DNA from: an uncultured Candidatus Saccharibacteria bacterium
GTDB taxonomy: Bacteria; Patescibacteriota; Minisyncoccia; Phycocordibacterales; DATDWN01
Length of the DNA stretch: 64,000 nucleotides
Reading direction: 5' to 3'
Assembly: GCA_964576615.1 (NCBI GenBank)
Contig: CAZNUU010000004.1
Location: 4,663 to 68,662, forward strand
Shown here: positions 17,196 to 62,680 of the stretch, piece by piece
Layout of the letters: each line of letters begins with the position of its first letter
Position numbering within the stretch: position 1 is the first letter of the stretch
Translations under genes and position numbers: made by a program
Notes under the pieces: model-generated
Database searches by the model: none
Told to the model about the DNA's origin: nothing
What the model saw: only the letters and a program-made list of their open reading frames with translations

Positions 17196-17239
17196 TTTTA
17201 CCTGTTTTTTTGGCTTCGCCTTGGTATAATTAAGCAAGT

Positions 17240-18205: not shown

Positions 18206-18208
18206 GCT

Positions 18209-19278: not shown

Positions 19279-19604
19279 TGAAAAAGATACTTGAAAAGTT
19301 AAAACCATATTTGGAAAAAATGAAGATGGGTAATTCCTATCGCAAGGAGGGAATTTGGCCAGAACGTGACTGGAAAATAATTCTGTCAGTTACTTTTATT
19401 GCTGTAATACTTGTCGGAGGGTTGTCAGTTTACTTTTACTTAGAAATTGATCAAGGCAACCTTTTTCAGGTTGAAAGCGCTGGGATGAATCAAGAATTAA
19501 AAATCGACGCTGGTCTACTTACGAAAACTATTGGCGAGATAAACTCAAGGCAGGATGCTCTCGCAAATATTAAGAATAATGTGCCGAAAGATCCGTCTCT
19601 TTAA
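19278..19604 (+). CDS. Small single-TM pilus-operon protein (PilP-like?).
   Basis: Its start overlaps the pilO stop in a TAATG arrangement. One TM segment. Confidence 0.35.
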   Translation: MKKILEKLKPYLEKMKMGNSYRKEGIWPERDWKIILSVTFIAVILVGGLSVYFYLEIDQGNLFQVESAGMNQELKIDAGLLTKTIGEINSRQDALANIKNNVPKDPSL

Positions 19605-28954: not shown

Positions 28955-29584
28955 ATGTCAGCCAAGAACATTCTGTCCAATGGGATTTGTTTGTCGGACC
29001 GATACATTCCGAACTACGACAAACTCCAAGAAGTACTGAGGGTGATGCGTTCTCTGGGACACACAATTTCGATGACCCAGGGCGTTTACGACCTCATCCA
29101 CCCCGGGCACACCCGGTATCTCGAGAAGGCGAAATCCTTCGGGGATATCTTGGTCGTGGCTGTGGATACGGATGAGTACACCCGACTGCGCAAGCAGAGG
29201 GAAAATGAGCGTCGGCCAGTTGTGCCGTTCGAAGAGAGGCTGGAACTTCTAGCCAACCTGCGCACAGTCGACATACTGACTGTGCGGGACGTAACGGAAC
29301 ACGAGAAGGATCCGACACACGTAATAAAGATCGTACAACCGGATGTTCTCGTCATGTCGCGATCAACGAAGGATGTGGGGAAAGATTGGTACGACGAGCT
29401 TCGCAAACTCTGCGGACGTCTCGAGGTACTCGAGCCGCAGTCAACGGGCTCAACAACCAAACAACTTCGTGATCTCATGATGGACGGGGCTTCTGGACTT
29501 GTCGATCACCTCCGTGAGACGATCGACAATTACTTCAGGGCGGCCGGCCGAGAGGTGACGTTTGGTAAAAGGAGGGATGGATGA
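28955..29584 (+). CDS. Cytidylyltransferase-like (HxGH) nucleotidyltransferase. It is GC-rich.
   Basis: GVYDLIHPGHTRYL ... ILVVAVDTDEYTRLRK ... RPVVPFEERLELLANLRTVD matches the TagD / RfaE-domain-II style nucleotidyltransferase fold. It is the first gene of a GC-rich island. Confidence 0.55.
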   Translation: MSAKNILSNGICLSDRYIPNYDKLQEVLRVMRSLGHTISMTQGVYDLIHPGHTRYLEKAKSFGDILVVAVDTDEYTRLRKQRENERRPVVPFEERLELLANLRTVDILTVRDVTEHEKDPTHVIKIVQPDVLVMSRSTKDVGKDWYDELRKLCGRLEVLEPQSTGSTTKQLRDLMMDGASGLVDHLRETIDNYFRAAGREVTFGKRRDG

Positions 29585-30441
29585 GGGCATTACTCGCCTA
29601 CGTTCCTGTCTTGAACCAACGTCACGTTGATTGGTTCAAGAGACATGAGGAGAGTCCGCTCTACCTCATACCGCAAGAGATGGCGGTGGGTTTCTTACCG
29701 CGACTCTCTCGAAATATTGCGGCTGTTTCTCCCGAGACGACCGCAACATCGATCAGATTCAACGGGTTGATACGAGAGGTGGCAATATTCAATCCCGAAA
29801 ACTGGGATCCGCGTTTGGCAAAAGACAGTGGGTGGAAAGATTGGGTTTTGCCAGACGAGGATATCTCACACGAAGTAGCTGAGAGGTACCTCAAACCGAT
29901 CGGAGCTTCGTGCCTCTTCGAAGAAATCTGGGCACGTTGGGATATGACCGCTGTACAAAAAATGCAGCCGGTCATTCCAGATGTGATAGTCAGCGAGTCC
30001 GAATTTGACCAAGTTCGGATGAGGTTAGCTGAGTGCCGAAAGACAGACAGCCCGGATTGGTGGCGGCAGATTGGTGCGGTATTGTTTGATGCGGGAGGTG
30101 AACCGATTTCATCTGCCTGCAACTTACACATGCCGAACGAATACGAGACGTATATCTTCGGAGATCCACGTCTCAATGTTGATGCCGGTCAGATCGGCAA
30201 GTACACCTCGCTTCACGCCGAGAAGGCTGTCATTGTTTTGGCGGCCAGGCTGGGTCGTCCGACGAACGGCGGATCGATGTATGTCACAGTTTTTCCTTGC
30301 GAGGACTGTGCCAGAGAGATCGCGTTCGCCGGGATTTCCAAAGTGTTCTTTCGTGAAGGGTACTCTGCTCTCAATGCTCGAGAAGTCTTTCGATCATGGG
30401 GAGTGGAAGTGGTCCAAGTCAAAGGCCCCGAGTCCGCGTAA
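29581..30441 (+). CDS. Two-domain protein. The N-terminal domain (~180 aa) is unknown. The C-terminal domain is a CMP/dCMP deaminase zinc-binding domain. It is GC-rich.
   Basis: The C-terminal SLHAEKAVIVLAARLG ... VFPCEDCAREIAFAGI gives the HAE...PCxxC deaminase signature. It overlaps the previous gene in an ATGA arrangement. Confidence 0.55.
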   Translation: MRALLAYVPVLNQRHVDWFKRHEESPLYLIPQEMAVGFLPRLSRNIAAVSPETTATSIRFNGLIREVAIFNPENWDPRLAKDSGWKDWVLPDEDISHEVAERYLKPIGASCLFEEIWARWDMTAVQKMQPVIPDVIVSESEFDQVRMRLAECRKTDSPDWWRQIGAVLFDAGGEPISSACNLHMPNEYETYIFGDPRLNVDAGQIGKYTSLHAEKAVIVLAARLGRPTNGGSMYVTVFPCEDCAREIAFAGISKVFFREGYSALNAREVFRSWGVEVVQVKGPESA

Positions 30442-30457
30442 GCGGCCGGGGCCTTGT

Positions 30458-30913
30458 CTATTTCTTCCAGCCGAGAGTCACCAGAAGACGGTTTTCGGCA
30501 GTCATGTCTTCTGTTTTTTTCTCGCCAACAAGAAAATGAAAGTGCAAGTGGTCTAGAGTGGCGCCTGTATACTCCATGTCCCCTGACCTTGCAAACATAG
30601 AGTACCCAGTTACTCCGAGATGGTCCTCGAGCCAAGCGAGAAGTTCAAAAAGTTCCACTATCTCTCTCGTGTCTAGCTCGCTAGCTCTCTTCATGTGCCT
30701 CTTTGGCACGAGCAAGTAATGGTGAACACTCCCCAGGTAGGGGAAGTTGTTGGGACAGACGTACCACCACTCCGTTTCATGGATAGTGGTCGGGAGTGTC
30801 TGCTCTTCTTCCGATCCACCTCGACAGAAGTAGCAGATACCAGCGTCAATCAATTTCTGCATTCTTCTTCTTTGTTCTGGATCACGCGAGTTACTCATAT
30901 TCACTTGAGACAT
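30458..30913 (-). CDS. HIT (histidine triad) family protein. It is GC-rich.
   Basis: The histidine triad LDHLHFHFLVG is present. A CYFC zinc-binding-like motif lies near the N-terminus. Confidence 0.65.
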   Translation of the reverse strand: MSQVNMSNSRDPEQRRRMQKLIDAGICYFCRGGSEEEQTLPTTIHETEWWYVCPNNFPYLGSVHHYLLVPKRHMKRASELDTREIVELFELLAWLEDHLGVTGYSMFARSGDMEYTGATLDHLHFHFLVGEKKTEDMTAENRLLVTLGWKK

Positions 30914-30998
30914 GCGTTATACCTCTTTCGGATTTCTAACATTTTAAATATAAAAAGCAAGTCGCCCCAGAATTTTGGGGCGACTCAGTGCAGAAGGA

Positions 30999-31908
30999 CT
31001 AGACCGTGACCGGGATGTCGTTCATCACTTCTCCCGGGTGATACTCACGCAGCTCGAAGTGATTGGGTCGAAAATCGAACAGGTCACTGACCCTCTCTCC
31101 TTCTTCGGTGAGATACATCGTCGGAAACTGTCGTGTCTCTCGCTCCACAATTTTCTTTGCAGCTTCCATCTGGTCTTCGTAGATGTGGCTGTTGTGGGTT
31201 GAGTGAACAAACAGGTGCGGCTCGTAACCAAGCACATGTCCGAGCATCATGGTGAGCGCTGCGTACTGGATGGTGTTCGACGGTACGCCGATGGGGAAAT
31301 CGGCAGACCTTTGATCCATACGCAAGCTGAGTCGCTTGTTCATCACGGTGATTTCAATGTCACCGTGACATGGTGCGACGACAACTTTCCTCTTACGGCC
31401 TAAGTGTTGGATCGCGTAGTGTGGAATCCAGGAGGTGATCTTGTGAGTGATCACATCGGGGTAGTCACGAATCTGCTCGATCACTTCTCGGAACTGATTA
31501 AAGGTCCCGCCGTCGGGTGTCGTGTACTGGAACGCGCCGCCATACGAACCCGGACCCATATCGTACGGCTCAAGGTCGAAGTCGGCACATTTCTCTGGTG
31601 TGGCCCATTTCTCCATCCACCAGTTGACTCCCCACTTCTCAGCGAGTTCACGTGCGTCGCGGACACCGTGAATGAAACCGAGAAGCTCGCCGATCGGTTT
31701 TCGCCAGAAGCCCACCTTTCGTTCGGTGAGTACTGGGAAGCCGTTCGAGAGGATGTAACTCATCGGTGCGAGGTCGAGGACAACGTAACGCCCGGTCCTC
31801 TGGAATGGATTCTTGGCGTACTCGCCGCTTGCCAGAATCTGTGCCAGGAAATTCTTGTACTGCGTATCCGGCGTACGAAGGCTATACGGTCGATAATTCG
31901 GATGCATG
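30999..31908 (-). CDS. thyA: Thymidylate synthase (ThyA family). It is GC-rich.
   Basis: The catalytic VVAPCHGDIEI (PCH motif) is present. QRSADFPIGVPSNTIQYAALT retains the Asn equivalent of E. coli N177, indicating dUMP specificity. The start was chosen at the Met preceded by AAAGGA (MHPNYR). Confidence 0.7.
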
Positions 31909-31964
31909 CTAGTCCTTTCAAAAAAGCAGATCTTTTGTGATACTAGCATCTAACTTTTTTAAGT

Positions 31965-34533: not shown

Positions 34534-37500
34534 ATGGAAAAAGAAGAAAAAAAATTAGGCAAATCAGATGTGGCTTTGAAAGAAGAAGCTATTTTAGAGT
34601 CCTGGCAAAAAAATAGAATATTTGAAAAGACTTTGGAAAAAAATTCCCCGAAGGGTGAGTTTGTTTTTTATGATGGGCCACCTTTTGCCACGGGCTTACC
34701 TCACTACGGTAGTTTACTTGGCTCCATCGCTAAAGATCTTTTTCCGCGTTACAAAACCATGCAAGGCTATTATGTACGCCGTCGCTGGGGCTGGGATTGT
34801 CACGGGCTTCCAATTGAAAATTTGGTGGAAAAGAAATTAGGCCTTAAACACAAAAAAGACATTGAGGTTCTGGGTATAGAGAAATTTAACGAGGAATGTC
34901 GGAGCCAGGTTCTAACTTATGTACACGATTGGAAAAAGTACATTGATCGGGTAGCTCGCTGGGTTGATTTTGATGGCTCCTACAAAACCATGGATGCCAG
35001 TTTTACTGAAAGTGTCTGGTGGGCACTTTCCGAAATGAATGAAAAAGGACTTCTCTACGAAGGTCGTAAGGTCTTACTTTATTGTCCGCACTGCGAAACT
35101 CCTCTGGCCAAGGCCGAGATTGCTATGGATAACTCTTACAAGGACATAACAGAGGAGGCTGTGACAGTAGAATTCAAGCTAAAAGATGACCCTAAGACTT
35201 CTATTCTCGCCTGGACAACAACACCGTGGACTCTCCCAGGTAACGTGGCGTTGGCAGTTCATCCTGATATTGATTACGTAGTAATAGAGAAGAAAGATAT
35301 GGGTGTGGGGGACTTGGTTCGATTTATTCTAGCTAAAAAAAAGCTCGAGGATATTTTTGGTAAAGACGAATATAGGGTTGTTGAAGAAAAAAAAGGAAGG
35401 GATTTAGTTGGCCTTGAATATGAACCTCTCTATGAAATTGAAGCAGTTAAAAAAACAGGTAAAAAAGCTTGGTATGTGACTGGAGCGGATTTTGTTAACA
35501 CGGAAGAGGGAACAGGTGTAGTTCATACAGCTGTAATTTATGGGGAGGACGATTTTAATCTAGGCCAGAAAATTGATTTACCGATGGTGCCCCTACTTTT
35601 GCCAAATGGAAATTTTAACCTGGAGGCACCAGAGTTTATTAGAGGTGTCTATCTAAAAAAAGCAGAGGGTTTGATAAAAGAAGATCTCGAGAAGCGTGGG
35701 CTTTTATTCGATAAGAAAATGAATACCCACTCCTATCCGCATTGTTACAGGTGTGGCACGCCACTCATATACAATGCACTTTCTAGCTGGTTCATTGATG
35801 TTCAGAAGATAAAGGACAAAATAATTTCGACAAACGAAAACATTAATTGGATGCCAGATCACCTGAAACACGGACGTTTTCTAGATATCATGACTAACGC
35901 GCCAGATTGGGCAATAAGCCGAAATCGTTTTTGGGCTTCACCTTTGCCGATTTGGAAAGATAGCCAAGGGAATATAACAGTTGTAAGTGGTTTGGAAGAT
36001 TTGAAAAAGCATCTTAGGAAAACTGGCAATAAATTCTTTTTAATAAGACACGGAGGGTCACTCAGCAATGAAAAAAATGTAAGCAGTTTAGTGCCGGGTG
36101 AAGAAAATGATTGCCTCACGAAAAAAGGCGAAGATCAGGTTAGAAAATCAGCCAAAGAGTTTAAAGACAAGGTTGATTTAATTATTACCTCTAATTTTAG
36201 AAGGACGCAAAAAACAGCCGAAATTTTCGCTGAAGAAAAAGGATTAAGTAAGGAGGATATCGTGGTTGATGATAGCCTGCATGAATTTATTGATGAGGGT
36301 GACCGGGCTGAAAATTATGCAGATGTCAGAAAGAGGATGGTTCATGTTCTCTCGCGTTTAGACAAAGAATATTCGGATAAAAATATTCTGGTCGTTTCTC
36401 ACGAGTATCCATTGCGAGTCCTGCTTTCCTCCCACGAATCTCTCGACGATTTTGAAGAGAGTGAAAACTTTAATAATAAATTTACTTACCTGGATAATGC
36501 CAAAATTACCCCAATAAATTTTATTTCGCTACCCCGAAATATCTTTGCTCAAGTTGATTTTCACCGACCTTATATTGATGAGGTTCAGTTATACAACGAT
36601 ATAGGGGATTCTATATATAGAATTCCGGAGGTAATTGATTGTTGGGTAGAGTCAGGCTCCATGCCTTTTGCAGAATATAATTATCCTTTTGCGCATAAGA
36701 AAGAATTTGAAAAGAGAAGCCCTGCAGATTTTATAGCAGAGTACATACCCCAAACACGTACCTGGTTTTACTATATGCATGTCGTTTCCAACGCTTTGTT
36801 TGGGCATGAAGCATTTAAAAACGTTGTCACGACGGGGAATGTTCTTGCGATAGATGGTAGCAAAATGAGTAAATCAAAAAATAATTATACCGATCCGCTT
36901 ATATTAATGGATAAATTTGGCGCAGATTCGTTACGCTACTATTTGACGACCAGTGTAGTGATGCAAGCAGAAGATTTGGCTTTTTCGGATAAGGATGTGC
37001 AAGAAATTCACCAGAGGCTTCTAAATATTTTGAGAAATGTTGCGGTATTTTACGAGACTTATAAAAGTGATTCAGAGCCAAAATTAAATCACGAGAATGT
37101 TTTAGACAAATGGATATCTATGCGCCTCAAACAATTGAGGGATGAAACCACGGTAAATTTAGATAGATTTGATTCAATCCGAGCTGGCAGACCGCTTAAG
37201 CAGCTTGTGGATGATTTGTCTACTTGGTATTTGAGAAGATCTAGAGAGCGTTTAAAGATGGGCGGAGAAGAGGGGGAGAAAGCACTCCAGCATTTAGCCT
37301 TTATTCTCGGGGAGCTATCAAAGCTTATTGCACCGTTTGTGCCGTATGTTGCTGAGGAAATTTACCAGAAAGTTAAAGGCAAAAGAGGCCTACAAAGTGT
37401 GCATTTAGAAAGTTGGCCAGAAATGAGGGATGTAAATGTTGAACCAGATTTTCTAGCTATCATGTCTAATACCAGAGAAATAGTAACTCAAGCTCTCGAG

Positions 37501-37914
37501 TTAAGGCAGGAGGCTAATATAAAGGTGCGTCAACCCCTGGCGTCACTCACTATTCCTGAGAGTTTGCCAAAAGAGTTTTTGGAAATTTTACGAGATGAAG
37601 TTAATGTCAAAGAGGTAAAAGTTGGTGGTGATTTAAATCTTGATACTAATTTAACCCCCGAACTTCTCGCGGAGGGGCTGGTACGGGATGTTATAAGAGG
37701 GATTCAAGATGTGAGAAAAACAGAAGGTTTAAATCCAAATCAAAAGATAAAGATAGTTGCTCATGCCGATAAGGAGTTAGAAAAAATGATTAATTCAAAT
37801 TTAAGCCAAATTAAACAGCCGACTCAGGTATCTGGCGTTTCTTTCTCGAGAGAAGAACAAAAACATAAAATTGCACTTGAAAAAAACAAACTCTCTGTTT
37901 CAATAGAGAAGTAA
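34534..37914 (+). CDS. ileS: Isoleucine--tRNA ligase with an inserted histidine-phosphatase (PGAM-like) domain.
   Basis: The HIGH-class motif PHYGS and the KMSKS motif are present. WAISRNRFWASPLPIW is present. The insert between that and DCWVESGSMPFA carries FLIRHGGSLSNEKN and VVSHEYPLRVLL, which are the RHG and SH motifs of histidine phosphatases. Confidence 0.85.
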   Translation: MEKEEKKLGKSDVALKEEAILESWQKNRIFEKTLEKNSPKGEFVFYDGPPFATGLPHYGSLLGSIAKDLFPRYKTMQGYYVRRRWGWDCHGLPIENLVEKKLGLKHKKDIEVLGIEKFNEECRSQVLTYVHDWKKYIDRVARWVDFDGSYKTMDASFTESVWWALSEMNEKGLLYEGRKVLLYCPHCETPLAKAEIAMDNSYKDITEEAVTVEFKLKDDPKTSILAWTTTPWTLPGNVALAVHPDIDYVVIEKKDMGVGDLVRFILAKKKLEDIFGKDEYRVVEEKKGRDLVGLEYEPLYEIEAVKKTGKKAWYVTGADFVNTEEGTGVVHTAVIYGEDDFNLGQKIDLPMVPLLLPNGNFNLEAPEFIRGVYLKKAEGLIKEDLEKRGLLFDKKMNTHSYPHCYRCGTPLIYNALSSWFIDVQKIKDKIISTNENINWMPDHLKHGRFLDIMTNAPDWAISRNRFWASPLPIWKDSQGNITVVSGLEDLKKHLRKTGNKFFLIRHGGSLSNEKNVSSLVPGEENDCLTKKGEDQVRKSAKEFKDKVDLIITSNFRRTQKTAEIFAEEKGLSKEDIVVDDSLHEFIDEGDRAENYADVRKRMVHVLSRLDKEYSDKNILVVSHEYPLRVLLSSHESLDDFEESENFNNKFTYLDNAKITPINFISLPRNIFAQVDFHRPYIDEVQLYNDIGDSIYRIPEVIDCWVESGSMPFAEYNYPFAHKKEFEKRSPADFIAEYIPQTRTWFYYMHVVSNALFGHEAFKNVVTTGNVLAIDGSKMSKSKNNYTDPLILMDKFGADSLRYYLTTSVVMQAEDLAFSDKDVQEIHQRLLNILRNVAVFYETYKSDSEPKLNHENVLDKWISMRLKQLRDETTVNLDRFDSIRAGRPLKQLVDDLSTWYLRRSRERLKMGGEEGEKALQHLAFILGELSKLIAPFVPYVAEEIYQKVKGKRGLQSVHLESWPEMRDVNVEPDFLAIMSNTREIVTQALELRQEANIKVRQPLASLTIPESLPKEFLEILRDEVNVKEVKVGGDLNLDTNLTPELLAEGLVRDVIRGIQDVRKTEGLNPNQKIKIVAHADKELEKMINSNLSQIKQPTQVSGVSFSREEQKHKIALEKNKLSVSIEK

Positions 37915-38655: not shown

Positions 38656-40551
38656 ATGGATGAAGAAGAGAGTAGTATAGAGCGCCTGAAAAAATCGCTA
38701 TATACCAGGAATGAAAAACTTGTTCCTAAAGAAAAAAGGACACCAGTTTCTCCCCATGAAGTTGAGGCGCCGCCAGATTGGGGTGGTAAGAGGACATTTG
38801 ATTATTCTCCAGAGGTTGTAATAAAAAGAAATAATTCTTTTTTCAATAAATTTTTAATCGGCAGCCTTGTCTTTTTTACCCTATCTTTAGCTATTGCTCT
38901 CTTTATCTTTTTTGGTGGTCTTAACATGATTTCATCTAATAATCTCACTCTCGAGATTACTGCACCAAGTTCGGTTTCCTCTGGCGAAGAATTAGACATT
39001 GGTTTAACCATAACCAATCAAAATAGAACGGATCTGGAAGAAGCCTCCCTCATTATTGATTATCCGGAAGGTGCACAATCTGTGGGGGATAATAATAAAC
39101 CTTTGGTTCACGAAAAAATTGATCTTGGTACAATCGCCAAACATGACAAAACAAATTACACCGTGAGAGCGCTACTTTTTGGCGATAAAGACGTAACAAA
39201 GACGTTTAATTTCAGAATTGAGTACAAAGTTAAGGGTTCAAATGCCGTTTTCTCAAAAGAGAAATCCTTCGATGTTCTAATCGGTTCTTCACCGTTACTT
39301 CTCAATGTAAGCTACCCAACTCAGATTACTTCAGGCGATACAATTACTTTAAAATTAGAAATTACCTCAAACTCGTCTGTGCCCATTAGGAATGCTCTGG
39401 TGAAAATTGAATATCCATACGGGTTTACGTATAAAACTTCAAATGTGAAACCACTGCGCAGTAATTCTGTTTGGAACATAGGGGACTTGAAAAACGGGGA
39501 CAAGAAAACACTGACAGTTACAGGGGTTCTCATTGGCCAGAATCAAGAGGATAGATCATTTAGAATTTCTGCTGGAACGCCTGATTCAGGCTCGAACGAT
39601 TTTACTGAAAGCCTAGCTCAAACTATTGTTACTTTAGGTATAAGAAAATCGTTTTTCGATTTGGGAATAAACCTGGTTGGGGGGACTGTAGTTCATCCCA
39701 ATGAAAATATACAAATGCAAGTCATGTGGGAGAATACTTTACCGGACAGAGTCCTTAACAATGTTATTTTAGTTAAGCTCTCTGGAAATGCTATTGATCG
39801 GTCCCTCATAAGTGTTAATAATGGAGGGTTTTACAGATCTGGCGATGACACTATTACTTGGGACAAAAACGGCGATAATGATCTACAAGAACTATCTCCG
39901 GGGGATCATAATCAAGTGACATTTTCACTACATTCCCTACAGGATAATTTAAATAGGCTCGTAAAAAATCCCCATATCGATGTGAATGTGGTTATGACCG
40001 GAGACAGGTCTGGAACAAATGTAGAGAGCATATCTTCAGTTGCTGATTACTCAGTTAAAATTTCCTCCACTCTTACTCTGGTAGGCAAAACATACAGAAG
40101 TGTCGGTCCGTTCTCAAACACCGGCTCGATACCGCCTCGGGTTGATAAAGAAAGCACTTATACTATTTATTGGTCTGTTTCTAACACAACGAATGACTTA
40201 AAAAATACTCTGGTTACGGCAACTCTACCTCCGGGAGCAGTTTGGAAAAACGAGACTTCAGCTGGTACCGGCAGTATTTCATATGATCCAGATAGTAGGT
40301 TAGTAACTTGGAATATCGGGAATGTCTCAGCAGGAGTTGGGTATAGCTACCCTGTTCTAGAAGCATATTTTAAAGTTGGCCTAACGCCAAGTGCAAACCA
40401 AGTCGGCTCGCCGGCAGTGGTTATAAACGAATCTAAACTTGAGGCGCTAGATACATATAGTGGCAATACTTTAACAGAAGGTATAACTACTTTAACCACC
40501 CATTACGCTGATCCGGATTTTTCTACTGGTAAGGATAATGTGACAAAGTAA
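38656..40551 (+). CDS. Single-pass membrane protein with a large extracellular beta-sandwich repeat region (CARDB/DUF11-like). Function unknown.
   Basis: The topology is a cytoplasmic N-terminus, then the TM segment FLIGSLVFFTLSLAIALFIFF, then ~540 aa of repetitive extracellular sequence. Confidence 0.45.
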   Translation: MDEEESSIERLKKSLYTRNEKLVPKEKRTPVSPHEVEAPPDWGGKRTFDYSPEVVIKRNNSFFNKFLIGSLVFFTLSLAIALFIFFGGLNMISSNNLTLEITAPSSVSSGEELDIGLTITNQNRTDLEEASLIIDYPEGAQSVGDNNKPLVHEKIDLGTIAKHDKTNYTVRALLFGDKDVTKTFNFRIEYKVKGSNAVFSKEKSFDVLIGSSPLLLNVSYPTQITSGDTITLKLEITSNSSVPIRNALVKIEYPYGFTYKTSNVKPLRSNSVWNIGDLKNGDKKTLTVTGVLIGQNQEDRSFRISAGTPDSGSNDFTESLAQTIVTLGIRKSFFDLGINLVGGTVVHPNENIQMQVMWENTLPDRVLNNVILVKLSGNAIDRSLISVNNGGFYRSGDDTITWDKNGDNDLQELSPGDHNQVTFSLHSLQDNLNRLVKNPHIDVNVVMTGDRSGTNVESISSVADYSVKISSTLTLVGKTYRSVGPFSNTGSIPPRVDKESTYTIYWSVSNTTNDLKNTLVTATLPPGAVWKNETSAGTGSISYDPDSRLVTWNIGNVSAGVGYSYPVLEAYFKVGLTPSANQVGSPAVVINESKLEALDTYSGNTLTEGITTLTTHYADPDFSTGKDNVTK

Positions 40552-46563: not shown

Positions 46564-46595
46564 TTCGACCCTGGTTATCCACAGAGAGGGGAAGT

Positions 46596-46650
46596 ATGGA
46601 TGGTCAGGAGTGGTAACGATCAGTGTCACATTTCCATCCATTTTTTTTTG
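46596..46650 (+). terminator. Hairpin with a long loop, followed by T9.
   Basis: atggatgg-(27 nt)-ccatccat, followed by ttttttttt. Confidence 0.45.
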
Positions 46651-46979
46651 CTGATTTTTGCAATCTTTTATCTCAAAGTAATTCTCAAAGGAGGTCTAAA
46701 AATGGCCGTTTGAACTATATGCAACATTACTAAACCTTAATAGGTCTCATGAAAAAATATAGATATTTTTTTGATGGTCTTTTTTTGAAAATTTTTTCAG
46801 AATTCATAACTTTTGGACTCACTAGTTTAGTTTTTTTAATTAGATTTGAGCCAAAAAAATACCTAAATTTTCCAACATTTTCTTAGGGGGTCTTTTTACC
46901 AAAAAAAGGCTTATTTATAGGCAAATAAGTGATAAAATATATATAAATCGCTGTCCGTTGGACCGATATTAATTCACTC

Positions 46980-49900
46980 ATGATCGGCGATGCAGTAAAA
47001 AGAATAGTGAGAAAAGAATTTCCTACTGGAAAAACTGTTTTTTCTTCACTCTTAATTTCTCTGTTAGCCCTCTCGCCCCTGCCACTTTTTGCCTCTACTT
47101 ATCAAACTTTAGCCTACCAAGACGTACACAAAGACAGATACCTATTTGCCTTTAATTTGATTTCAAGTGTTCAGAATTCTCTTGCGAATTTAAGTGATGG
47201 CCAGATAGGAAGTAAGTTTTCAGATGAGGAAAATCAGTTAATTTCAGCGAGCCAGCAGAACGCAGATAAGTTAGGAGAATTAATTAATGAAAAAATAGAT
47301 TACTTGGGTTATTCAATAAACCAGGGTTCAGCAGATTTGGTGTACCAAGGAGAATTATTTTTTGAATATATTTTTGGTTTATCTTTGAATAATAATCCAA
47401 GCGGTAATTATAATTTCAAATCACCGATAAGTGGAGGAGTGTCTTTGAGCAATCTTTTTGAAGGCAAAGTGATTTCAAAGTTTAGAAATTTATTTGGTAA
47501 TGGGATCAATTTTCCAAAAGTTGCTGAAGCAAAAAAAATAGTAGAAAAGAAATCGGAACAGATTTCAGAAAAAACGAAAGCTGCCGAAGTTGCAGTTTCA
47601 AATAAACCAGAGCCAAAAGTTTTGGCTGCAAATATTTCTGTTCCAACAAGTGCAATAAAAAAAGTTATAAATAATTATTTGGCTCCAACTCCTAAACAGG
47701 ATGCGGCACTTAGTATTTTACCTAACTACGTAACAAAAAAAGATTTAGACAGTCGCTTGAAGTTATTATCTGAAGAATTTATTAAAAAAATATCGGCAAT
47801 TAACATTAATCCCGTAAGTGGTGACGATTTGGCAAACATATACAGGCAGATCGCTCTAACCCAGAGGATAGACCAAATTTCAAATGTAACCATCAATAAT
47901 TCCTACATTAGCAGCGGTAGTGTCGGGGGTGTCTCTGTGACCAACATTGTTTCAAATACTGGCTCAACAAGTATCCCGAATCTAGTAGTAAACAACACCT
48001 CTACCTCTACATTTGCCGGGGGGGTAGCTATTACAGGCGGATGTATAAGTGTAAATGGTACATGTGTGGGTGGCGGTGGGGGTAGTGGTACACCCGGAGG
48101 TAGTGATGGCCAGATCCAATTTAACAGTGGAGGGACATCATTCGGAGGGTCGTCCAGTTTGGTCTGGGATAATACTAACTTGAGGCTGGGTGTTGGTACA
48201 ACATCACCATACGCTCCACTTTCAGTTGTGGGGCAAATTGTTGCAGCCTATTTTACGGCAACAACAACATTGGTAAATACATTTCCTTATGCTTCAACCA
48301 CAGCTCTGTCGGTTTCCAGTGGACTGACATTGAATACTTCAACTAATGGTCCACTTCAAGCAGTTGGTGGAATTGTTTCAGCTACCACATCGATTGGTGT
48401 TGCGTACGGTGGTACCGGTTGGGCATCTCTTCAATCAAACGCAGTTCTTCTTGGAAATGGTTCAGGGAAAATTGCAACAACATCAGCTGGTACCGACGGG
48501 CAAGTCTTGGCATTAGTAAACGGGGTACCAACCTGGCAATCGACTACAACACTTTCTACAATTACTGGAACACTTACAGTAGGGAAGGGTGGTACTAATG
48601 CAACATCTTTCTCAGCTAACTCGATTGTGGTTTCTGATGCTGCCGGGACAACTCTAATTGCTACTGGGTCGAAACTAACCATTGGCTCACTCCTTTCTAC
48701 CACAACCGCAACATCCACATTTTCTGGAGCACTAGGAATTGGCACGACATCACCTTGGGCAGTATTTTCTGTTAACCCAACGGGAGGTACAGCAGCTGCA
48801 CAATTTGTAGTTGGATCCTCATCTGCAACAAATCTAATCGTGTTAAACTCGGGATTTGTTGGTATTTCCAGTACAACCCCGACATCTAGATTTGGAGTAA
48901 ACCCTCAAGCCGGAGATATAGTAGCTTTTGCAGTAGGTTCTTCAACTAAATCACTTCTCTCCATCTCGACTGAAGGTTTTGGCACCACAACCCTTGCTGG
49001 TCTTAACGTAAATGCTACAGCCACTTCTACATCAAATGTTGGCTGGAATATAAGTAATGGTTGTTATGCTATTTCTGGAACCTGTCTTTCTCTTTCTAAT
49101 TTGGCTGGAACACTTGCTGTCTCCAAGGGCGGAACAAATGCTACTTCTTTTGCAGCTAACTCCATCATTGTCTCTGATGCTGCTGGCACAACTCTCATTG
49201 CAACAACATCAAACAACTTCACACTCGGATCGTTTATTGCCACCTCCACCACACTTAACTCCTACTCACTTAATAACTGGACAGGTTTTGGCACAAGTAC
49301 GCCGGTATACGAAGTTACAATCTCATCTTCTACAGCGCCCCAGTTAGCTTTATCTGCAGGCTCGGGTATAGCGCAGTGGGTATTTAGAAACGGTGGGGGT
49401 GATCTTTATCTCGCGACTACAACTGTCGCGGGAACTGCTACTACCTCAATCACAGCTCTAACCATATCTGGTAGTGGCTTCGGTACCACAACAATCCGCG
49501 GCCTAACTATTGCTAACGGCCAAGCAACTTCTACCTCCAACGTCGGTTGGTCAATCACAAATGGTTGTTACGCTATAGGTACGACCTGTCTATCACTTTC
49601 ATCACTTACTGGAACACTCGCGGTTGCAAGTGGTGGTACTAACTCGACATCTTTTGCGGCTAACTCGATTATCACATCTGATGCCGCCGGAACTACACTC
49701 ATTGCAACAACATCAAACAACTTCACACTCGGATCATTTATTGCCACCTCCACCACACTTAACTCCTACTCACTTAATAACTGGATTGGTTTTGGTACCA
49801 CAACATCGAAGTACCCCTTAACAATTTCATCTTCGACGGCATCTCAACTTGCTCTCTCAGCTAGCTCTGGTTTTGCTCAGGTGGTGTTTAGAAATGATGG

Positions 49901-50801
49901 CACTAACTTTTACATTGCCACAACCACTACTGCTGGTACAGCTACCACTTCAACTCCGGCGATGCAGATAGCAATATCTACTGGTAATGTTGGTTTTGGT
50001 ACAACAACTTCTCTTGGGCCGCTCACCATGAACTCTGGTGCGTTTGTGACAACAGGAGGTACATGGACAAACGCGTCAGATCGAAACTTGAAGGAAAATT
50101 TTGTGGAGCTAGATATTAACGATATCTTAAACAAGATTATGCAGTTGCCGATAACACAGTGGAATTATAAATCTGAAAATATTAACATTCCTCACATCGG
50201 TCCAGTTGCTCAAGATTTCCATGCAATATTTGGTCTTGGTAATTCTGATACATCAATCTCGACCATTGACCCTGCCGGTGTAGCACTTGTGGGTATAAAA
50301 GCTTTATATAAAAAAATCGAAGACATTGGCAAATATTTTGCAGATAATGTTCTTAAAATAAACAAAGTCTCTACGGAAAACCTTTGTGTAAGTGATGATG
50401 AAGGTGAGACGTGTATCACTAGGGCAGAACTTCTAGCACTTCTTTCAAAATCAAAAGGGCAAAGCAGTAATACTCCTCCTCCAACGGCTTCGACAACTCT
50501 GTCTGTCCCGCAAGACACTTCCGCTCCAGTTATTACTATTTTGGGGGATAACCCAGCACAGATAGTTGTTGGCTCAACTTATTCCGACATGGGTGCCACA
50601 GTTTCTGATACCAACGCAGATGGAAGTGTAAATAATAATCTGGGTCTGCACTACACTGTAAATGGTCTAAGTACAGATTCTGTTTCGATTGATACGGCTA
50701 CTTCATCAAGTCACACCGTCGTATATTCGGCAGTAGATTCGTCAGGAAACTGGGGCTATGCAACTCGAACTGTAGAGGTAAAAGAAGCTGTTGCGCCGTA
50801 A
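46980..50801 (+). CDS. Giant secreted protein (1273 aa) resembling a tail fibre. It has a signal peptide, Thr/Ser/Gly-rich beta repeats, a C-terminal intramolecular-chaperone (peptidase S74-like) module, and a DUF5011-like Ig domain.
   Basis: The signal peptide is FSSLLISLLALSPLPLFAS. A ~170-aa unit is repeated (GTLAVSKGGTNATSFAANSI...). The chaperone-like block is LPITQWNYKSENINIPHIGPVAQDFHAIFG...VALVGIKALYKKIEDI. The C-terminal PVITILGDNPAQIVVGSTYSDMGATVSDTNADGS is DUF5011-like. Confidence 0.6.
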   Translation: MIGDAVKRIVRKEFPTGKTVFSSLLISLLALSPLPLFASTYQTLAYQDVHKDRYLFAFNLISSVQNSLANLSDGQIGSKFSDEENQLISASQQNADKLGELINEKIDYLGYSINQGSADLVYQGELFFEYIFGLSLNNNPSGNYNFKSPISGGVSLSNLFEGKVISKFRNLFGNGINFPKVAEAKKIVEKKSEQISEKTKAAEVAVSNKPEPKVLAANISVPTSAIKKVINNYLAPTPKQDAALSILPNYVTKKDLDSRLKLLSEEFIKKISAININPVSGDDLANIYRQIALTQRIDQISNVTINNSYISSGSVGGVSVTNIVSNTGSTSIPNLVVNNTSTSTFAGGVAITGGCISVNGTCVGGGGGSGTPGGSDGQIQFNSGGTSFGGSSSLVWDNTNLRLGVGTTSPYAPLSVVGQIVAAYFTATTTLVNTFPYASTTALSVSSGLTLNTSTNGPLQAVGGIVSATTSIGVAYGGTGWASLQSNAVLLGNGSGKIATTSAGTDGQVLALVNGVPTWQSTTTLSTITGTLTVGKGGTNATSFSANSIVVSDAAGTTLIATGSKLTIGSLLSTTTATSTFSGALGIGTTSPWAVFSVNPTGGTAAAQFVVGSSSATNLIVLNSGFVGISSTTPTSRFGVNPQAGDIVAFAVGSSTKSLLSISTEGFGTTTLAGLNVNATATSTSNVGWNISNGCYAISGTCLSLSNLAGTLAVSKGGTNATSFAANSIIVSDAAGTTLIATTSNNFTLGSFIATSTTLNSYSLNNWTGFGTSTPVYEVTISSSTAPQLALSAGSGIAQWVFRNGGGDLYLATTTVAGTATTSITALTISGSGFGTTTIRGLTIANGQATSTSNVGWSITNGCYAIGTTCLSLSSLTGTLAVASGGTNSTSFAANSIITSDAAGTTLIATTSNNFTLGSFIATSTTLNSYSLNNWIGFGTTTSKYPLTISSSTASQLALSASSGFAQVVFRNDGTNFYIATTTTAGTATTSTPAMQIAISTGNVGFGTTTSLGPLTMNSGAFVTTGGTWTNASDRNLKENFVELDINDILNKIMQLPITQWNYKSENINIPHIGPVAQDFHAIFGLGNSDTSISTIDPAGVALVGIKALYKKIEDIGKYFADNVLKINKVSTENLCVSDDEGETCITRAELLALLSKSKGQSSNTPPPTASTTLSVPQDTSAPVITILGDNPAQIVVGSTYSDMGATVSDTNADGSVNNNLGLHYTVNGLSTDSVSIDTATSSSHTVVYSAVDSSGNWGYATRTVEVKEAVAP
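48570..49800 (+). repeat. Intragenic tandem repeats with a period of about 510-540 nt. The last two units are almost identical over ~130 nt.
   Basis: The segment at 49141-49270 is near-identical to the segment at 49651-49780 (...tcattgcaacaacatcaaacaacttcacactcggatc...). Mirror ORFs appear on the minus strand at 49064-49252 and 49568-49756. Confidence 0.75.
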
Positions 50802-59137: not shown

Positions 59138-62100
59138 ATGAATCTAAACAAATCAAAAACTGCAAAGTTGGCTGCCGGAGTAGTCGGACTTGCTATGGCG
59201 GTTTCAGTATTTATGCCAGTAATGGCTTCTGCTGATACAGCTTCAGATTTGCAAGCGCAAATCAATAGCTTAATGGCTACAATCGCTTCGCTTCAAGCAA
59301 AGCTTGCGGCATCGACAGGTGGCTCAATGTCAACTGGCTACACATTCAACGTAAACTTGACTGTCGGTAGTACAGGAGCAGATGTTATGAATCTACAAAA
59401 GGTTCTTAACATGTCTGCAGACACACAAGTTGCAGCTTCAGGTACTGGATCACCAGGTCATGAATCATCATACTTCGGTGCTCTAACAAAGGCCGCTGTT
59501 GTTAAATTCCAAACAAAAAATGGAATTTCTCCAGCTGCTGGTTATGTAGGTCCAATCACTCGAGCGAAACTTAATTCAATGGGCGGTGGTACAACCACAG
59601 TTCCTCCAGTAGGAACAGGCGCTCTATCAGTTTCAGCTGGAGTTCAGCCTGCTAACTCGCTTGCACCTCAAAGTGCAGCTCGAGTTCCTTTCACAACAGT
59701 TGTCCTCACAGCAGGATCAGCTGATGTGACTGTAAACTCAATCACAGTTGAAAAAGCTGGCCTAGGTCAGGATGCTGTATTTAGTGGCGTCGTTCTTCTA
59801 AGATCAGACGGTACTCAAATCGGTATCGCAAAGACACTTAACTCAAATCACCAAGCAATGGTTGGTGAACCATTTGTGGTTAAGGCTGGTACTTCAATGA
59901 CAGTTACAGTTGCTGGTAACATGGCATCTTCTCTTGCAACATATGCAGGACAGGTTCTTGGTCTAAACGTTGTCGCAGTTAACGCTGCCGGCACAGTTTC
60001 AGGCTCTCTACCTATAAGTGGTGCAATGCATACTATCAACGCAACACTTACACTAGGTTCAGTTACTGTTGGTACTTCTTCTTATGATCCTGGTTCATCC
60101 CAGAGTAAGGAAATTGGTACAACTGGTTACAAATTCGCTGGCTTCAGACTTACAGCTGGTTCAGCTGAACAAGTAAGACTATGGTCAGTAAGATTTAACC
60201 AAACAGGTAGTGCTGCATCAGGCGACCTTGCAAACGTAATGGTCGTTATCGATGGCACATCTTACCCAACAACAGTTTCTGCTGATGGTAAGTACTACAC
60301 AGCGATGTTCCCAGGCGGACTACTTATTGATAAGGGTCTTTCTAAGGACGTCTACATTCAGGGTGATATCGTAGGAACAGGTGCTGCAGGACGAACTGTA
60401 AAGTTTGATCTCTACAAGCAAACTGATCTATACGTATCTGGAGTAACATATGGTTACGGAATTACACCTCCAGCAGGTTCAAACTCTGTAGTTACATGTT
60501 CAACTACCCAGGCTTGTGGTAACTTCACTACAGGTACACCTTGGTTCCAAGCAAATATACTTACAGTTTCAGCTGGTTCGGTTACAACAATCAACAAGGC
60601 AACATCAGTGCCTTCACAAAACATTGCTGTAAACGTTCCTAACCAAGTTCTCGGTGGATTTACAACAGATATTAAGGGTGAACCAATATCAGTACAGTCA
60701 ATGGTCTTCACTATTGCTACAACTGGTACATGGACATCTTCAACTGGCATTACCAACATCACTATCGTCGATTCAAACGGCGCAGTTGTTGCTGGTCCAA
60801 TTGATGAGGCTACATCTTGTACATCTGGTTGTTCAATCACATTCACTGACACAGTTACATTCCCAGTTGGTCCAAGGACTTACACTTTGAAAGGTAAAAT
60901 CCCTTCTGGTGCACCTAATGGAGCAACAGTTACAGTTTCGGCTACACCTTCATCAGGTTGGACAAACGTAACAGGACAAGTTACTGGAAACACAATCAGT
61001 CTCTCAGGAGCTGGTGCGTTCTCAATGAATGCTATGACTGTTAAAGCAGCCGCTCTATCGATTGCAGTATCAGCTACACCTGCTGCTCAGTCAGTAGTTG
61101 CTGGTTCTCAAGGCTTCGTATTTGCTAACTATCAATTCGATGCTTCTCAATCAGGTGAAGATCTAAGATTCTCATCTATTGGACTTCTGTATGATGGTGC
61201 AAACCAAAGCTTAGCTGCAGATCCATCATCCCAAACAGCTTGTCAGTTGTTCGATAGCTCTACAGCTTTGAACACTGGTTCAAACACTGTTAACCCAACA
61301 AATGGTGGTACAGCAACTTCGTCTAACACAACAGGTTACTCATCTACATTCACGTTCGATCAATCTCTCGTAGTTCCAAAAGGAACTGTCAAGACTTTGA
61401 CTCTAAAATGTAATGTATCTGCTTCGGCAAACAGTAACTCTGTATTCCAGTGGGGCATCGCTGCTTCACCTTCGATCACAGTCACTGGCGTAACTTCTGG
61501 AAACACAGTTTCATCAGTTGTTACTTCATCTAACGGTCAGGCAATGACAGTTGCTAATGGTTACCTAACAGTAACTACAGATCCGTCATCACCTTCATAC
61601 GCCGTTGTTGCAGGAGGTACAACAGGAAATGTTGTGGGAGTTTACAAGATTCGTGCATCAAACGATTCTGTAAATCTAACAACACTTGGTCTTAAACTTA
61701 CTAACACAGCTTCATCTTCAGCTTCTGATCTAGTTCAGGTCACAGTCTGGGATGGTGCTACTCAAGTAGGTTCAGCAGTCTTCACAGGTAGTAACACAGT
61801 AGCTACGTCAACATTGACACTAGCTTCACCTTCTGGAGTATTGCTTACAAAGGACACAGATAAGCTCTTGACTATCAAGGCTGATCTTACAAATATCGGG
61901 ACTTCACAGCCTGGTACACAAGGTCACTTGATTGCAATTGATATAAACGCAAACGACACAACAGGTACACAAGGTACAGGTATTGGCTCGGGTGCAACAA
62001 TCAACCTTGCAACTTCAGGTTCCACAGCTTCAACAGCTGTAGCTGGAGTAAGAGTCTTTAGGTCATACCCAACATTCGCTAAATTATCAGTACCTACAAA

Positions 62101-62680
62101 CACTCTAAACAATGGTACTCAATCATTGTTAAGATTTAAGGTCACTGCTAACGCAGCTGGTGATGTCGGTATCTACAAGTTCACATTGAATGTTGCTACA
62201 TCAACTGCAACTGTAACTAACATCAACATAAAGGCTTACACTGATTCAGGCTTCTCAACACCAGTTTCTGGTTTGAGTGCTGACGGATCGATGCTTGTTA
62301 CACCACTTACGGGTACAGCATGGGCTGCATCAAACACTGATCTAGAAGTATTTGCACAGAATTCTTCTGCTGCCTCTACAACAGTTCAGGTTCCAGCAGG
62401 TCAGACACGTTACTTTGATGTAACTGGTACTGTCGCCGGCGCCGCAACAGGTGCTTCTGTACAGACCCAACTTCAAGGTGATGCTGCTTACCCAGTCAAC
62501 CAGTATGTATCTAACTTTATGGCAACATCAACTGCTGTAAACAACGATACAAACAACGACTTTATCTGGTCACCAAACGCTACATCAACATCAGTTGTCT
62601 CATCTAACGACTGGACAAACGGATTTGGTCTAGTTGGTCTACCAGCAGTTAACATGTCACCAGAGGTATTATCTAGGTAA
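59138..62680 (+). CDS. Large secreted surface protein (1180 aa). It has a signal peptide, a coiled segment, a peptidoglycan-binding-like domain and long Thr/Ser/Gly/Val-rich beta-sandwich repeats.
   Basis: The signal peptide is MNLNKSKTAKLAAGVVGLAMAVSVFMPVMASA. The PG_binding_1-like block is GADVMNLQKVLN...YFGALTKAAVVKFQTKNGISPAAGYVGPITRAKL. Confidence 0.55.
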   Translation: MNLNKSKTAKLAAGVVGLAMAVSVFMPVMASADTASDLQAQINSLMATIASLQAKLAASTGGSMSTGYTFNVNLTVGSTGADVMNLQKVLNMSADTQVAASGTGSPGHESSYFGALTKAAVVKFQTKNGISPAAGYVGPITRAKLNSMGGGTTTVPPVGTGALSVSAGVQPANSLAPQSAARVPFTTVVLTAGSADVTVNSITVEKAGLGQDAVFSGVVLLRSDGTQIGIAKTLNSNHQAMVGEPFVVKAGTSMTVTVAGNMASSLATYAGQVLGLNVVAVNAAGTVSGSLPISGAMHTINATLTLGSVTVGTSSYDPGSSQSKEIGTTGYKFAGFRLTAGSAEQVRLWSVRFNQTGSAASGDLANVMVVIDGTSYPTTVSADGKYYTAMFPGGLLIDKGLSKDVYIQGDIVGTGAAGRTVKFDLYKQTDLYVSGVTYGYGITPPAGSNSVVTCSTTQACGNFTTGTPWFQANILTVSAGSVTTINKATSVPSQNIAVNVPNQVLGGFTTDIKGEPISVQSMVFTIATTGTWTSSTGITNITIVDSNGAVVAGPIDEATSCTSGCSITFTDTVTFPVGPRTYTLKGKIPSGAPNGATVTVSATPSSGWTNVTGQVTGNTISLSGAGAFSMNAMTVKAAALSIAVSATPAAQSVVAGSQGFVFANYQFDASQSGEDLRFSSIGLLYDGANQSLAADPSSQTACQLFDSSTALNTGSNTVNPTNGGTATSSNTTGYSSTFTFDQSLVVPKGTVKTLTLKCNVSASANSNSVFQWGIAASPSITVTGVTSGNTVSSVVTSSNGQAMTVANGYLTVTTDPSSPSYAVVAGGTTGNVVGVYKIRASNDSVNLTTLGLKLTNTASSSASDLVQVTVWDGATQVGSAVFTGSNTVATSTLTLASPSGVLLTKDTDKLLTIKADLTNIGTSQPGTQGHLIAIDINANDTTGTQGTGIGSGATINLATSGSTASTAVAGVRVFRSYPTFAKLSVPTNTLNNGTQSLLRFKVTANAAGDVGIYKFTLNVATSTATVTNINIKAYTDSGFSTPVSGLSADGSMLVTPLTGTAWAASNTDLEVFAQNSSAASTTVQVPAGQTRYFDVTGTVAGAATGASVQTQLQGDAAYPVNQYVSNFMATSTAVNNDTNNDFIWSPNATSTSVVSSNDWTNGFGLVGLPAVNMSPEVLSR

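Follow-up and report, generated by a model that had tools for sequence, protein, structure and literature searches.

A predicted Sec-exported fibre-like protein with an internal phage-type S74 chaperone domain, encoded among housekeeping genes of a Patescibacteria chromosome

The window analysed here is a stretch of 64,000 nucleotides (nt) from an uncultured Candidatus Saccharibacteria bacterium (GenBank assembly GCA_964576615.1, contig CAZNUU010000004.1, positions 4,663 to 68,662 of the forward strand). Within it, the open reading frame (ORF) at 46980..50801 on the plus strand starts with ATG and comprises 1273 codons and a stop, encoding a protein of 1273 amino acids (aa) according to the ORF list and its translation. 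We consider it fairly probable that this is a chromosomal Patescibacteria gene for a Sec-exported, fibre-like surface protein that uses a phage-type S74 chaperone for its assembly. Its trimerisation and cleavage are inferred by homology to S74 proteins; we also infer how it is oriented and anchored, what it binds and what the modules behind the chaperone do. A database protein (P0001) is 100% identical to the product, and a fragment 96% identical to it occurs in a metagenome-assembled genome (MAG) labelled Saccharibacteria (L002). A preliminary description made from the sequence had called it a tail-fibre-like giant surface protein; the fibre-like ORF of 1273 aa stood up to analysis, whereas "giant" was overstated, as its relatives reach about 2000-5000 aa. 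The parts of the gene are as follows, all on the plus strand.

46564..46979, plus strand: AT-rich intergenic region of 416 nt, 5' of the gene (sequence reading)
46980..50801, plus strand: whole gene, predicted Sec-exported fibre-like protein with internal S74 chaperone domain
46980..47093, plus strand: predicted signal peptide, aa 1-38, MIGDAVKRIVRKEFPTGKTVFSSLLISLLALSPLPLFA followed by ST (hydrophobicity, cleavage-site motif)
47094..47723, plus strand: N-terminal region, aa 39-248, no Pfam, PHROG or NCBIfam match
47724..47900, plus strand: conserved "neck", aa 249-307, YVTKKDLDSRL...IYRQIALTQRIDQISNVTINN, start of the shaft (motif shared with homologues)
47901..48566, plus strand: proximal shaft, aa 308-529, Gly/Ser/Thr-rich, with the Cys-x6-Cys pair C355/C362 and a GGTG...GQVLALVNGVPTW motif (composition, Cys positions; 52% identical to the orthologue up to aa 502)
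48567..49106, plus strand: shaft repeat 1, aa 530-709, ending in ...ATSTSNVGWNISNGCYAISGTC (C695/C702)
49107..49610, plus strand: shaft repeat 2, aa 710-877, ending with C863/C870
49611..50075, plus strand: shaft repeat 3, aa 878-1032, truncated and running into the chaperone, ending in ...GPLTMNSGAFVTTGGTWTNA
50076..50354, plus strand: Peptidase_S74 intramolecular chaperone/auto-processing domain, aa 1033-1125, with the predicted dyad Ser1033 (nt 50076-50078) and Lys1038 (nt 50091-50093) and the predicted scissile bond between Ala1032 and Ser1033
50379..50456, plus strand: Cys-hairpin and helix module, aa 1134-1159, LCVSDDEGETCITRAELLALLSKS, C1136/C1145, no Pfam model
50457..50531, plus strand: Ser/Thr/Pro-rich linker, aa 1160-1184 (sequence)
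50532..50780, plus strand: PF16403 (DUF5011) bacterial surface Ig-like domain, aa 1185-1267

The intramolecular chaperone domain (ICD) was recognised by Pfam-A as Peptidase_S74 (PF13884, 'chaperone of endosialidase') at aa 1033-1084 with an E-value of 1.2e-12 and 48.3 bits against a gathering score of 22, the match spanning positions 1-53 of the 58 in the model. It opens with the residues A1032-S1033-D-R-N-L-K1038-E-N-F, where the Lys lies five residues beyond the Ser. In an alignment of the C-terminal 304 residues with 23 homologues (A2), S1033 and K1038 were at least 90% conserved and G1074 was invariant, and the Ser/Lys dyad was retained in 62 of 65 ICD-bearing homologues. The profile built from this alignment matched a tail fibre (8jov, 4.9e-19), the MyRF ICA domain (7dc3, 5.5e-13), a T5-type L-shaped tail fibre (8hqz, 3e-11), a long tail fibre (6f45, 6e-10) and a phi29-type gp12 (3gud, 1e-3) in the PDB. 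A single-sequence phmmer search of the last 323 aa against the PDB sequences gave no match, and only the family profile reached the solved ICDs.

These alignments pair the family Ser with position S587A of 7dc3 and with the Ser of TSGIEYK in the T5-type fibre and of SSDRRIK in 6f45, and the family Lys with K592. S587 and K592 of MyRF are the equivalents of S911 and K916 of endoNF, an indispensable catalytic dyad, and the bond cut in S74/ICA domains lies just before the Ser, cleavage requiring the trimer (PMC8326128). Mutants of S74 domains with Ser replaced by Ala still fold and trimerise, the 3gw6 and 7dc3 structures being of such mutants, so that in all characterised S74 proteins the dyad serves cleavage and not folding (PMC8326128). 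The same alignments place W1061, Y1063, V1076 and Q1078 at the MyRF cleavage-hole residues Y615, Y617, I637 and Q639. The predicted fold matches the chaperone of endoNF from phage K1F (3gw6) and the MyRF ICA domain, with a beta 'donut' modelled around the scissile strand and a C-terminal helix of the trimeric coiled-coil type. The only PHROG match of the whole protein, a weak one to PHROG 8003 'virion structural protein' (E 4.8e-5), lies over the ICD region, and an NCBIfam search of the protein returned no family. An S74-type chaperone block had been proposed in the preliminary description on the basis of the peptides LPITQWNYKSENINIPHIGPVAQDFHAIFG and GVALVGIKALYKKIEDI, which we located at aa 1056-1116; the Pfam score and the profile matches to solved ICDs confirm it. 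The comparisons suggested there gave an intact Ser-Lys dyad, a predicted fold matching the K1F endosialidase chaperone and a profile match to the T5-type L-shaped fibre. The lack of any S74 or DUF5011 similarity had been named beforehand as the result that would speak against the proposal, and both domains score above their Pfam thresholds.

About 148 residues of the protein lie beyond the ICD. The Cys-hairpin module at aa 1134-1159 (LCVSDDEGETCITRAELLALL) was modelled by AlphaFold2 (AF2) as two strands and a helix with a predicted local distance difference test score (pLDDT) of about 80, and its C1145 was at least 90% conserved in A2. The linker behind it has a pLDDT below 50 at aa 1161-1168 of the AF2 model and leads into the domain at aa 1185-1267, which Pfam-A assigned to PF16403 (Bact_surface_Ig-like) with an E-value of 1.1e-8 and 35.5 bits against a gathering score of 27. 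PF16403 carries the NCBI name DUF5011 in several homologues. Its membership is given by the above-threshold sequence score together with a predicted Ig-like beta-sandwich fold, in agreement with the earlier proposal of a DUF5011-like Ig domain after the S74 block; the domain is confidently folded in the model and is of the kind seen in BT2262, SraP, Rib and Big_3. The modules behind the chaperone, namely the Cys-hairpin/helix and the Ig domain here and a transmembrane (TM) helix in some paralogues, would be a lineage-specific adaptation.

At the other end of the protein, a basic n-region is followed by a hydrophobic core of 19 aa (aa 20-38, Kyte-Doolittle 2.0), which is the most hydrophobic segment of the whole protein, and the sequence ...SPLPLFA before ST completes the layout of a type-I signal peptide. 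The claim that the protein is secreted thus found its counterpart at the N-terminus, and the motif suggests that the signal peptide would be cleaved. In the closest homologue, the Candidatus Zambryskibacteria orthologue P0002, an in-frame upstream extension encodes a canonical signal peptide, MKLRKYKSLKGRYALCLITFFLGSFLLSPSSVFA followed by AP, and both signal peptides are of the cleavable type, ending in (L/V)FA. The database start of P0002 is placed too late, the extension corresponding to L001 9839-10000. From aa 145 to aa 502 the two orthologues are 52% identical, and the region at aa 39-248 is possibly the envelope-proximal or attachment part. The neck motif DLxxRLxxL...QRIDxLxN was also present in 12 other homologues at 140-440 aa from the N-terminus; a 13th match of the regular expression, in P0014, lacked the motif and was not counted.

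No hydrophobic segment of TM strength was detected beyond aa 38 (the best scored 1.49 at aa 414), and neither a YadA-type beta-barrel anchor in Pfam nor an LPXTG signal nor an N-terminal lipobox Cys was found in the protein. Its C-terminus reads ...RTVEVKEAVAP, the signal peptide end LFA before ST has no Cys, and the first Cys of the protein is at aa 355.

Between the neck and the chaperone, the repeat motif GTL(A/T)V..GGTN(A/S)TSF begins at aa 530, 710 and 878, delimiting units of 180, 168 and 155 aa that are pairwise 43-72% identical, repeat 2 sharing 54% of its residues with repeat 1 and 72% with repeat 3. At the DNA level the copies are 76% identical with spacings of 540 and 504 nt, and the identities at both levels therefore indicate old duplications. 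Repeats 1 and 2 each close with ...ATSTSNVG(W)xIxNGCYAIxxTC, and a profile of this end module (A5) matched four stretches of the protein. Over aa 301-1000, Thr, Ser and Gly were the top three residues in each block of 100 aa, except for Ala in two blocks. The three repeats and the G/T/S-rich region noted from the sequence earlier were thus recovered by motif starts, identities and block composition, with a repeat size of 155-180 aa. All eight cysteines of the protein occur in C-x6-C or C-x8-C pairs (355/362, 695/702, 863/870 and 1136/1145), as expected for disulfide-stapled hairpins in an exported protein.

The shaft showed no match when aa 330-1032 were compared with the PDB sequences, and none of five protein segments had a PHROG match with an E-value below 0.01. 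As judged by sequence, it is unrelated to known phage fibres, and the fibre body would be a cellular invention of the Patescibacteria lineage. The AF2 monomer of one repeat (aa 700-880, alignment of 24 rows) had a pLDDT of 61 and almost no secondary structure, and the 62 residues preceding the ICD within repeat 3 had a pLDDT below 45 in the monomer model. Such poor monomer models fit an obligate oligomer, without proving it. In mid-shaft, P0002 has other repeats in place of those seen here, and the shaft is therefore modular.

A database search returned at least 277 homologues at E<=1e-5, and the named ones were nearly all MAG proteins of Patescibacteria/Parcubacteria/Paceibacterota with automatic names only, such as 'tail fiber domain-containing', 'DUF5011 domain-containing' and 'immunoglobulin-like domain-containing'. 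Many of the 277 carry the precomputed pair PF13884 and PF16403. The homologues share the shaft modules, Cys pairs, ICD and Cys-hairpin/helix with the 1273-aa protein, which is a typical, rather short member of the family. In 1.84 billion proteins, the profile of the shaft end module matched no more than 297 cluster representatives, of which many measure 2000-5000 aa.

Among the 65 ICD-bearing homologues, the Cys-hairpin/helix followed the ICD in 35, at least 17 of them with the Ig domain, these counts being lower bounds as they come from regular expressions. A different Cys-loop module (GITLYD...C) followed the ICD in 11, and the protein ended shortly after the ICD in eight. In six homologues, with P0064 added to P0109, P0010, P0114, P0042 and P0024, a Trp-flanked hydrophobic helix comes straight after the ICD, and the C-terminus is a basic tail. 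Besides, at least nine homologues (P0005, P0012, P0031, P0033, P0043, P0046, P0047, P0053 and P0069) begin with a cytoplasmic, DNA-binding helix-turn-helix (HTH) domain resembling HTH_17 and a single TM helix at about aa 110-170, followed by neck, shaft and S74 end; P0012 combines this start with the same S74, hairpin and Ig end as the 1273-aa protein. A tenth member of the HTH type, P0052, has no clear TM helix. The fusion of HTH, TM helix and fibre hints, at the level of domain order, at a link from surface contact to transcription. Two S74 matches about 135 aa apart, each with its own Ser...Lys motif, were seen in P0052 and in an ORF of about 3759 aa in an unlabelled MAG (L017, JBAXTI010000002.1).

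To follow the ICD subtype beyond the family, its alignment (A3) was scanned against one genome per species. The subtype was found in many Patescibacteria classes and in Nitrospirota, Planctomycetota, Ignavibacteriales, Zixibacteria, Bacteroidota and others, where the taxon labels of the MAGs are the depositors' own and some (e.g. Bryobacterales, L009) may be mis-binned. It was also found on four IMG/VR contigs at 48-54% identity; a search with the single protein had found no viral relative. On the viral contigs the protein ends 87-97 residues from the ICD start and is about 350-450 aa long (two run off the contig). In most bacteria outside the Candidate Phyla Radiation (CPR) the same distance is 88-135 residues in proteins of 170-870 aa, with L009, L041, L042 and L077 as exceptions. 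In labelled Patescibacteria it is 169-424 residues in proteins of about 670-3750 aa where the ORF is complete, and in L017 it is 445 residues. On the viral contig L083, the ICD ends a protein of 444 aa amid PHROG tail and virion genes, and the best ICD matches in cultured phages are only about 28-34% identical. The shaft module gave a single hit in 2.9 million viral contigs, L091 (IMGVR_UViG_3300033067_001864), where the family member has a Sec signal peptide and a neighbour of 1589 aa, and a weak PHROG match is seen in just one of the seven ORFs around it; this is probably a misclassified fragment of a CPR genome. As far as these comparisons go, only the chaperone appears to be shared with phages.

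The setting of the gene is that of a core chromosomal block. Upstream of it lie the genes for IleRS, RecO, a DUF11 protein, a class-II aminoacyl-tRNA synthetase, an M16 peptidase, an AI-2E transporter, MetRS and TatD, and downstream those for S6, SSB, EF-P, RecA and FtsK; other sampled genes of the window encode PolA, Fpg, UppS, ThyA, a GT2 glycosyltransferase and PilM. A Pfam scan of 30 window ORFs revealed no phage family. On the Candidatus Zambryskibacteria MAG contig PPGI01000004.1, P0002 likewise has TatD and S6-SSB as its flanking genes, and the remainder of the block is collinear. The placement of the source bacterium in the Patescibacteria, as Zambryskibacteria-like, was made from this orthologue and from the fragment in L002. 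Of three further Patescibacteria homologues with S74 and Ig domains, one is placed downstream of S12-S7 with EF-G as its immediate downstream neighbour, one has AlaRS on one side and, two genes on, an IF1-L36-S13-S11-S4-RpoA block on the other, and one comes just downstream of GatB and Obg. In the examples examined, the family genes thus adjoin, co-directionally, genes for ribosomal proteins, translation factors and aminoacyl-tRNA synthetases, and the bacterial housekeeping setting free of nearby phage structural genes that had been described earlier was upheld by the Pfam scan and by synteny.

The G+C content at third codon positions (GC3) of the gene is 0.308 against 0.30-0.39 in its neighbours, and its local rise in GC stems from codon position 2, i.e. 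from the G+C-rich codons of Gly, Ala, Thr and Ser. As its GC3 is like that of its neighbours, no phage genes were found and the same slot is occupied in a second genome, the gene is a native, resident member of a chromosomal family that is set repeatedly beside core housekeeping genes. The 416-nt region upstream presumably carries its own promoter; in a consensus promoter and terminator scan at the gene, sites were no more frequent than in shuffled sequence, and no promoter was identified.

On these grounds we propose the following course of assembly. The precursor would be exported via Sec by its N-terminal signal peptide. Outside the membrane, the ICD (aa 1033-1125) would align three chains, its C-terminal helix trimerising and templating the folding of the Gly/Thr/Ser-rich shaft. 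After trimer formation, Ser1033 and Lys1038 would cut between Ala1032 and Ser1033, which would leave aa 39-1032, about 990 residues, as the mature fibre and, as a C-terminal fragment of 241 residues, the chaperone, Cys-hairpin/helix, linker and Ig domain. The N-terminal end would be proximal to the cell and the cut end in repeat 3 would form the distal tip; the N-terminus is placed at the membrane and the ICD end away from it because at least nine homologues, including P0012, start with HTH and TM segments. In the most speculative step, the add-on modules would keep the chaperone on the cell surface while assembly proceeds outside the cell, until three chains meet. Such a tether would be useful because chains leave Sec one at a time, whereas a phage fibre has a crowded cytoplasm to fold in. 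For the Patescibacteria fibre, attachment to host cells or to some surface is the most likely function, as suggested by its architecture and by the lifestyle of cultivated Patescibacteria, which are reported to be episymbiotic and attached to other microbes (PMC12206443, PMC11665869).

The preliminary description had also spoken of a domesticated fibre used as a cell-surface appendage. The phage-like ICD is consistent with the first term and the shaft, for which no phage relatives were detected, is not, which would make the protein a cellular fibre using a phage-type chaperone. As regards the direction of S74 transfer between phages and cells, "domesticated" reads beyond the evidence, in which only the ICD appears phage-like. 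The second term is suggested by the signal peptide and by the paralogues anchored in the membrane at their N-termini.

Several observations weigh against a self-cleaving trimeric fibre that stays on the cell. Trimerisation and cleavage are argued from homology, and the triple-stranded nature of the shaft is assumed from the presence of the ICD, the shaft having no detectable similarity to a solved fibre or phage family and its repeat not folding in the monomer model. Between the two orthologues the would-be tip is conserved (aa 947-1267, 65%) and the mid-shaft swapped, unlike what a rapidly evolving receptor-binding tip would show. Three homologues, P0055, P0056 and P0021, lack the Ser/Lys dyad (AKAKRSLMEN, AAADRNLLTG) but retain the GITLYD-Cys module and all else of the ICD; they may be natural variants that do not cleave. 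It is not obviously economical to place a well-folded Ig domain on a fragment that is then discarded, which favours a fibre that does not cleave itself. The mature fibre, moreover, would have no recognisable anchor if the signal peptide is cleaved, and its release is possible.

An alternative that we judge unlikely is a fibre in which the S74 domain only trimerises and folds the chains and is retained after maturation, so that the working distal end would be the Ig domain, for instance as a ligand- or glycan-binding head. The internal position of the ICD and the confidently folded domain behind it, of the type found in adhesins and glycan-binding proteins (BT2262, SraP, Rib, Big_3) and wasteful to discard, speak for it, as do the three homologues without the dyad and the report that cleavage of MyRF is gated by other factors (PMC8326128). 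Against this stands the conservation of the dyad (at least 90% in A2; 62 of 65 homologues) along with the residues that line the cleavage site. The only known role of the dyad is cleavage, since the S-to-A mutants still fold and trimerise (PMC8326128). We give distinctly less credence to a released product, where the fibre or the ICD-Ig fragment is shed into the medium to act at a distance, be it as a soluble lectin, as part of a matrix or biofilm, or as a decoy for phages with similar fibres. The cleavable signal peptides of both orthologues and the lack of a recognisable membrane or cell-wall anchor in the mature protein would suit it; however, paralogues with the same shaft and C-terminal module are anchored by a TM helix at the N-terminus or carry one after the ICD, which points to a cell-associated family, and an N-terminal region 52% identical to that of the orthologue is what is expected of an envelope-attachment part.

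It is highly improbable that this is a phage gene, whether a tail-fibre gene left by a prophage, integrated or degraded, or part of a viral contig mis-assembled into the genome. S74 domains are best known from phage fibres and spikes, the weak PHROG 8003 match (E 4.8e-5) points the same way, and the ICD subtype does occur on the four IMG/VR contigs, but the 30 scanned ORFs contain no phage family, the slot between TatD and S6-SSB is shared with a second genome and GC3 is native. The protein has a Sec signal peptide, which virion proteins lack; the genuine phage versions are about 440 aa long and end with the ICD, matches in cultured phages are distant, and the shaft module is essentially absent from viral contigs save for L091. 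A prophage origin is therefore effectively refuted by context, synteny, composition, signal peptide and architecture. The gene was also considered as the target of a diversity-generating retroelement, an idea that was rejected, if weakly tested: the C-terminus is an Ig domain and the scan of 30 ORFs brought up no reverse transcriptase. Within 46.5-51.5 kb, the part of the window searched for a template repeat, the direct repeats correspond to the in-frame repeats of the protein.

Some other features of the window were recorded alongside. The IleRS gene at 34534-37914 (plus strand) encodes 1126 aa with an inserted His_Phos_1 (histidine-phosphatase) domain at about aa 502-585, which is also present in the Zambryskibacteria orthologue. 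At 29581-31949 the GC content peaks at 0.52 against about 0.39, over a thymidylate synthase gene (30999-31949, minus strand) and a dCMP-deaminase-like gene (29581-30441), a pair that may have been acquired horizontally. Two putative envelope proteins, one of 1180 aa with PG_binding_1 (59138-62680, plus strand), which is GC2-rich and GC3-poor like the fibre gene and conserved in position in the orthologous contig, and one of 631 aa with DUF11 (38656-40551, plus strand), share no sequence with the fibre. A PilM-like gene (17240-18205) lies amid small co-directional ORFs at 16408-19604 (plus strand); this run is probably a type IV pilus assembly cluster, an attachment and motility system already implicated in Patescibacteria.

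According to PMC12206443 and PMC11665869, host recognition and attachment in the CPR are largely unknown beyond type IV pili. The family described here, widespread in Patescibacteria and set in core chromosomal blocks, is a concrete candidate for their surface attachment apparatus. If the fibres bind hosts, their modular shafts and alternative ends would be candidate host-range determinants in a major uncultured radiation, and an exported S74 protein raises the question of chaperone-templated trimerisation outside the cytoplasm. A bolder picture, which we put forward tentatively and hold to be rather unlikely as a whole, is that Patescibacteria have repurposed a phage chaperone for the extracellular assembly of trimeric fibres once the chains have passed Sec, with the add-on modules tethering the chaperone at the surface so that three chains can meet, and self-cleavage freeing the tip of a host-attachment fibre. 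In that picture, the paralogues with a TM helix after the ICD would be the prokaryotic counterpart, and conceivably the source, of the MYRF architecture, and in the HTH-TM-fibre paralogues a DNA-binding domain in the cytoplasm would be coupled directly to a fibre on the surface.

The S74 domain has been described in phage virion proteins and in eukaryotic MYRF (PMC8326128), and the present protein extends these settings to an exported bacterial protein with lineage-specific modules. The ICA domain's homologues were described as earlier known only from phages (PMC8326128), and in the library that we searched we found no paper linking S74, tail fibres or DUF5011 with Patescibacteria/CPR. In the phage S74 proteins (endoNF 3gw6, T5 pb1, phi29/GA-1 gp12, K5 lyase), the ICD is the last domain of a virion protein assembled in the cytoplasm, whereas the 1273-aa protein has a signal peptide, about 148 residues beyond the ICD and a chromosomal housekeeping location. 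It has no structural-gene module around it and no phage-fibre-like shaft or N-terminal adaptor, its ICD is not last and it carries an export signal, all of which set it apart from phage tail fibres and tailspikes. In MYRF/MrfA (7dc3), membrane-tethered transcription factors of eukaryotes, a TM helix comes after the ICD, and cleavage sets the N-terminal DNA-binding trimer free within the cell; the 1273-aa protein has no TM helix beyond the ICD and all its parts are predicted to be extracellular. The six ICD-then-TM paralogues share the MYRF order, with an extracellular fibre in place of the transcription factor.

Short S74-terminated proteins of Nitrospirota/Magnetobacterium, Planctomycetota, Ignavibacteriales, Zixibacteria and others carry the same ICD subtype at 30-65% identity on chromosomal MAG contigs. 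Most of these have a phage-like ending, 88-135 residues from the ICD start, and some may be prophage genes. The Ig domains of BT2262, Big_3 (2kpn), Rib, SraP and the Sap S-layer protein are spacers or binding modules of monomeric adhesins or lipoproteins, and none of them sits downstream of an auto-processing chaperone. Classical anchored adhesins, i.e. trimeric autotransporters, LPXTG/sortase substrates and lipoproteins, differ in bearing anchor signals that were not found here. The domain family is well known and its homologues are already in databases under automatic names, so that the protein is not a new kind of thing. What is new with respect to the phage and MYRF cases is the combination of Sec export, a lineage-specific modular shaft, an internal ICD, the Cys-hairpin/helix and Ig modules, and a core-genome location.

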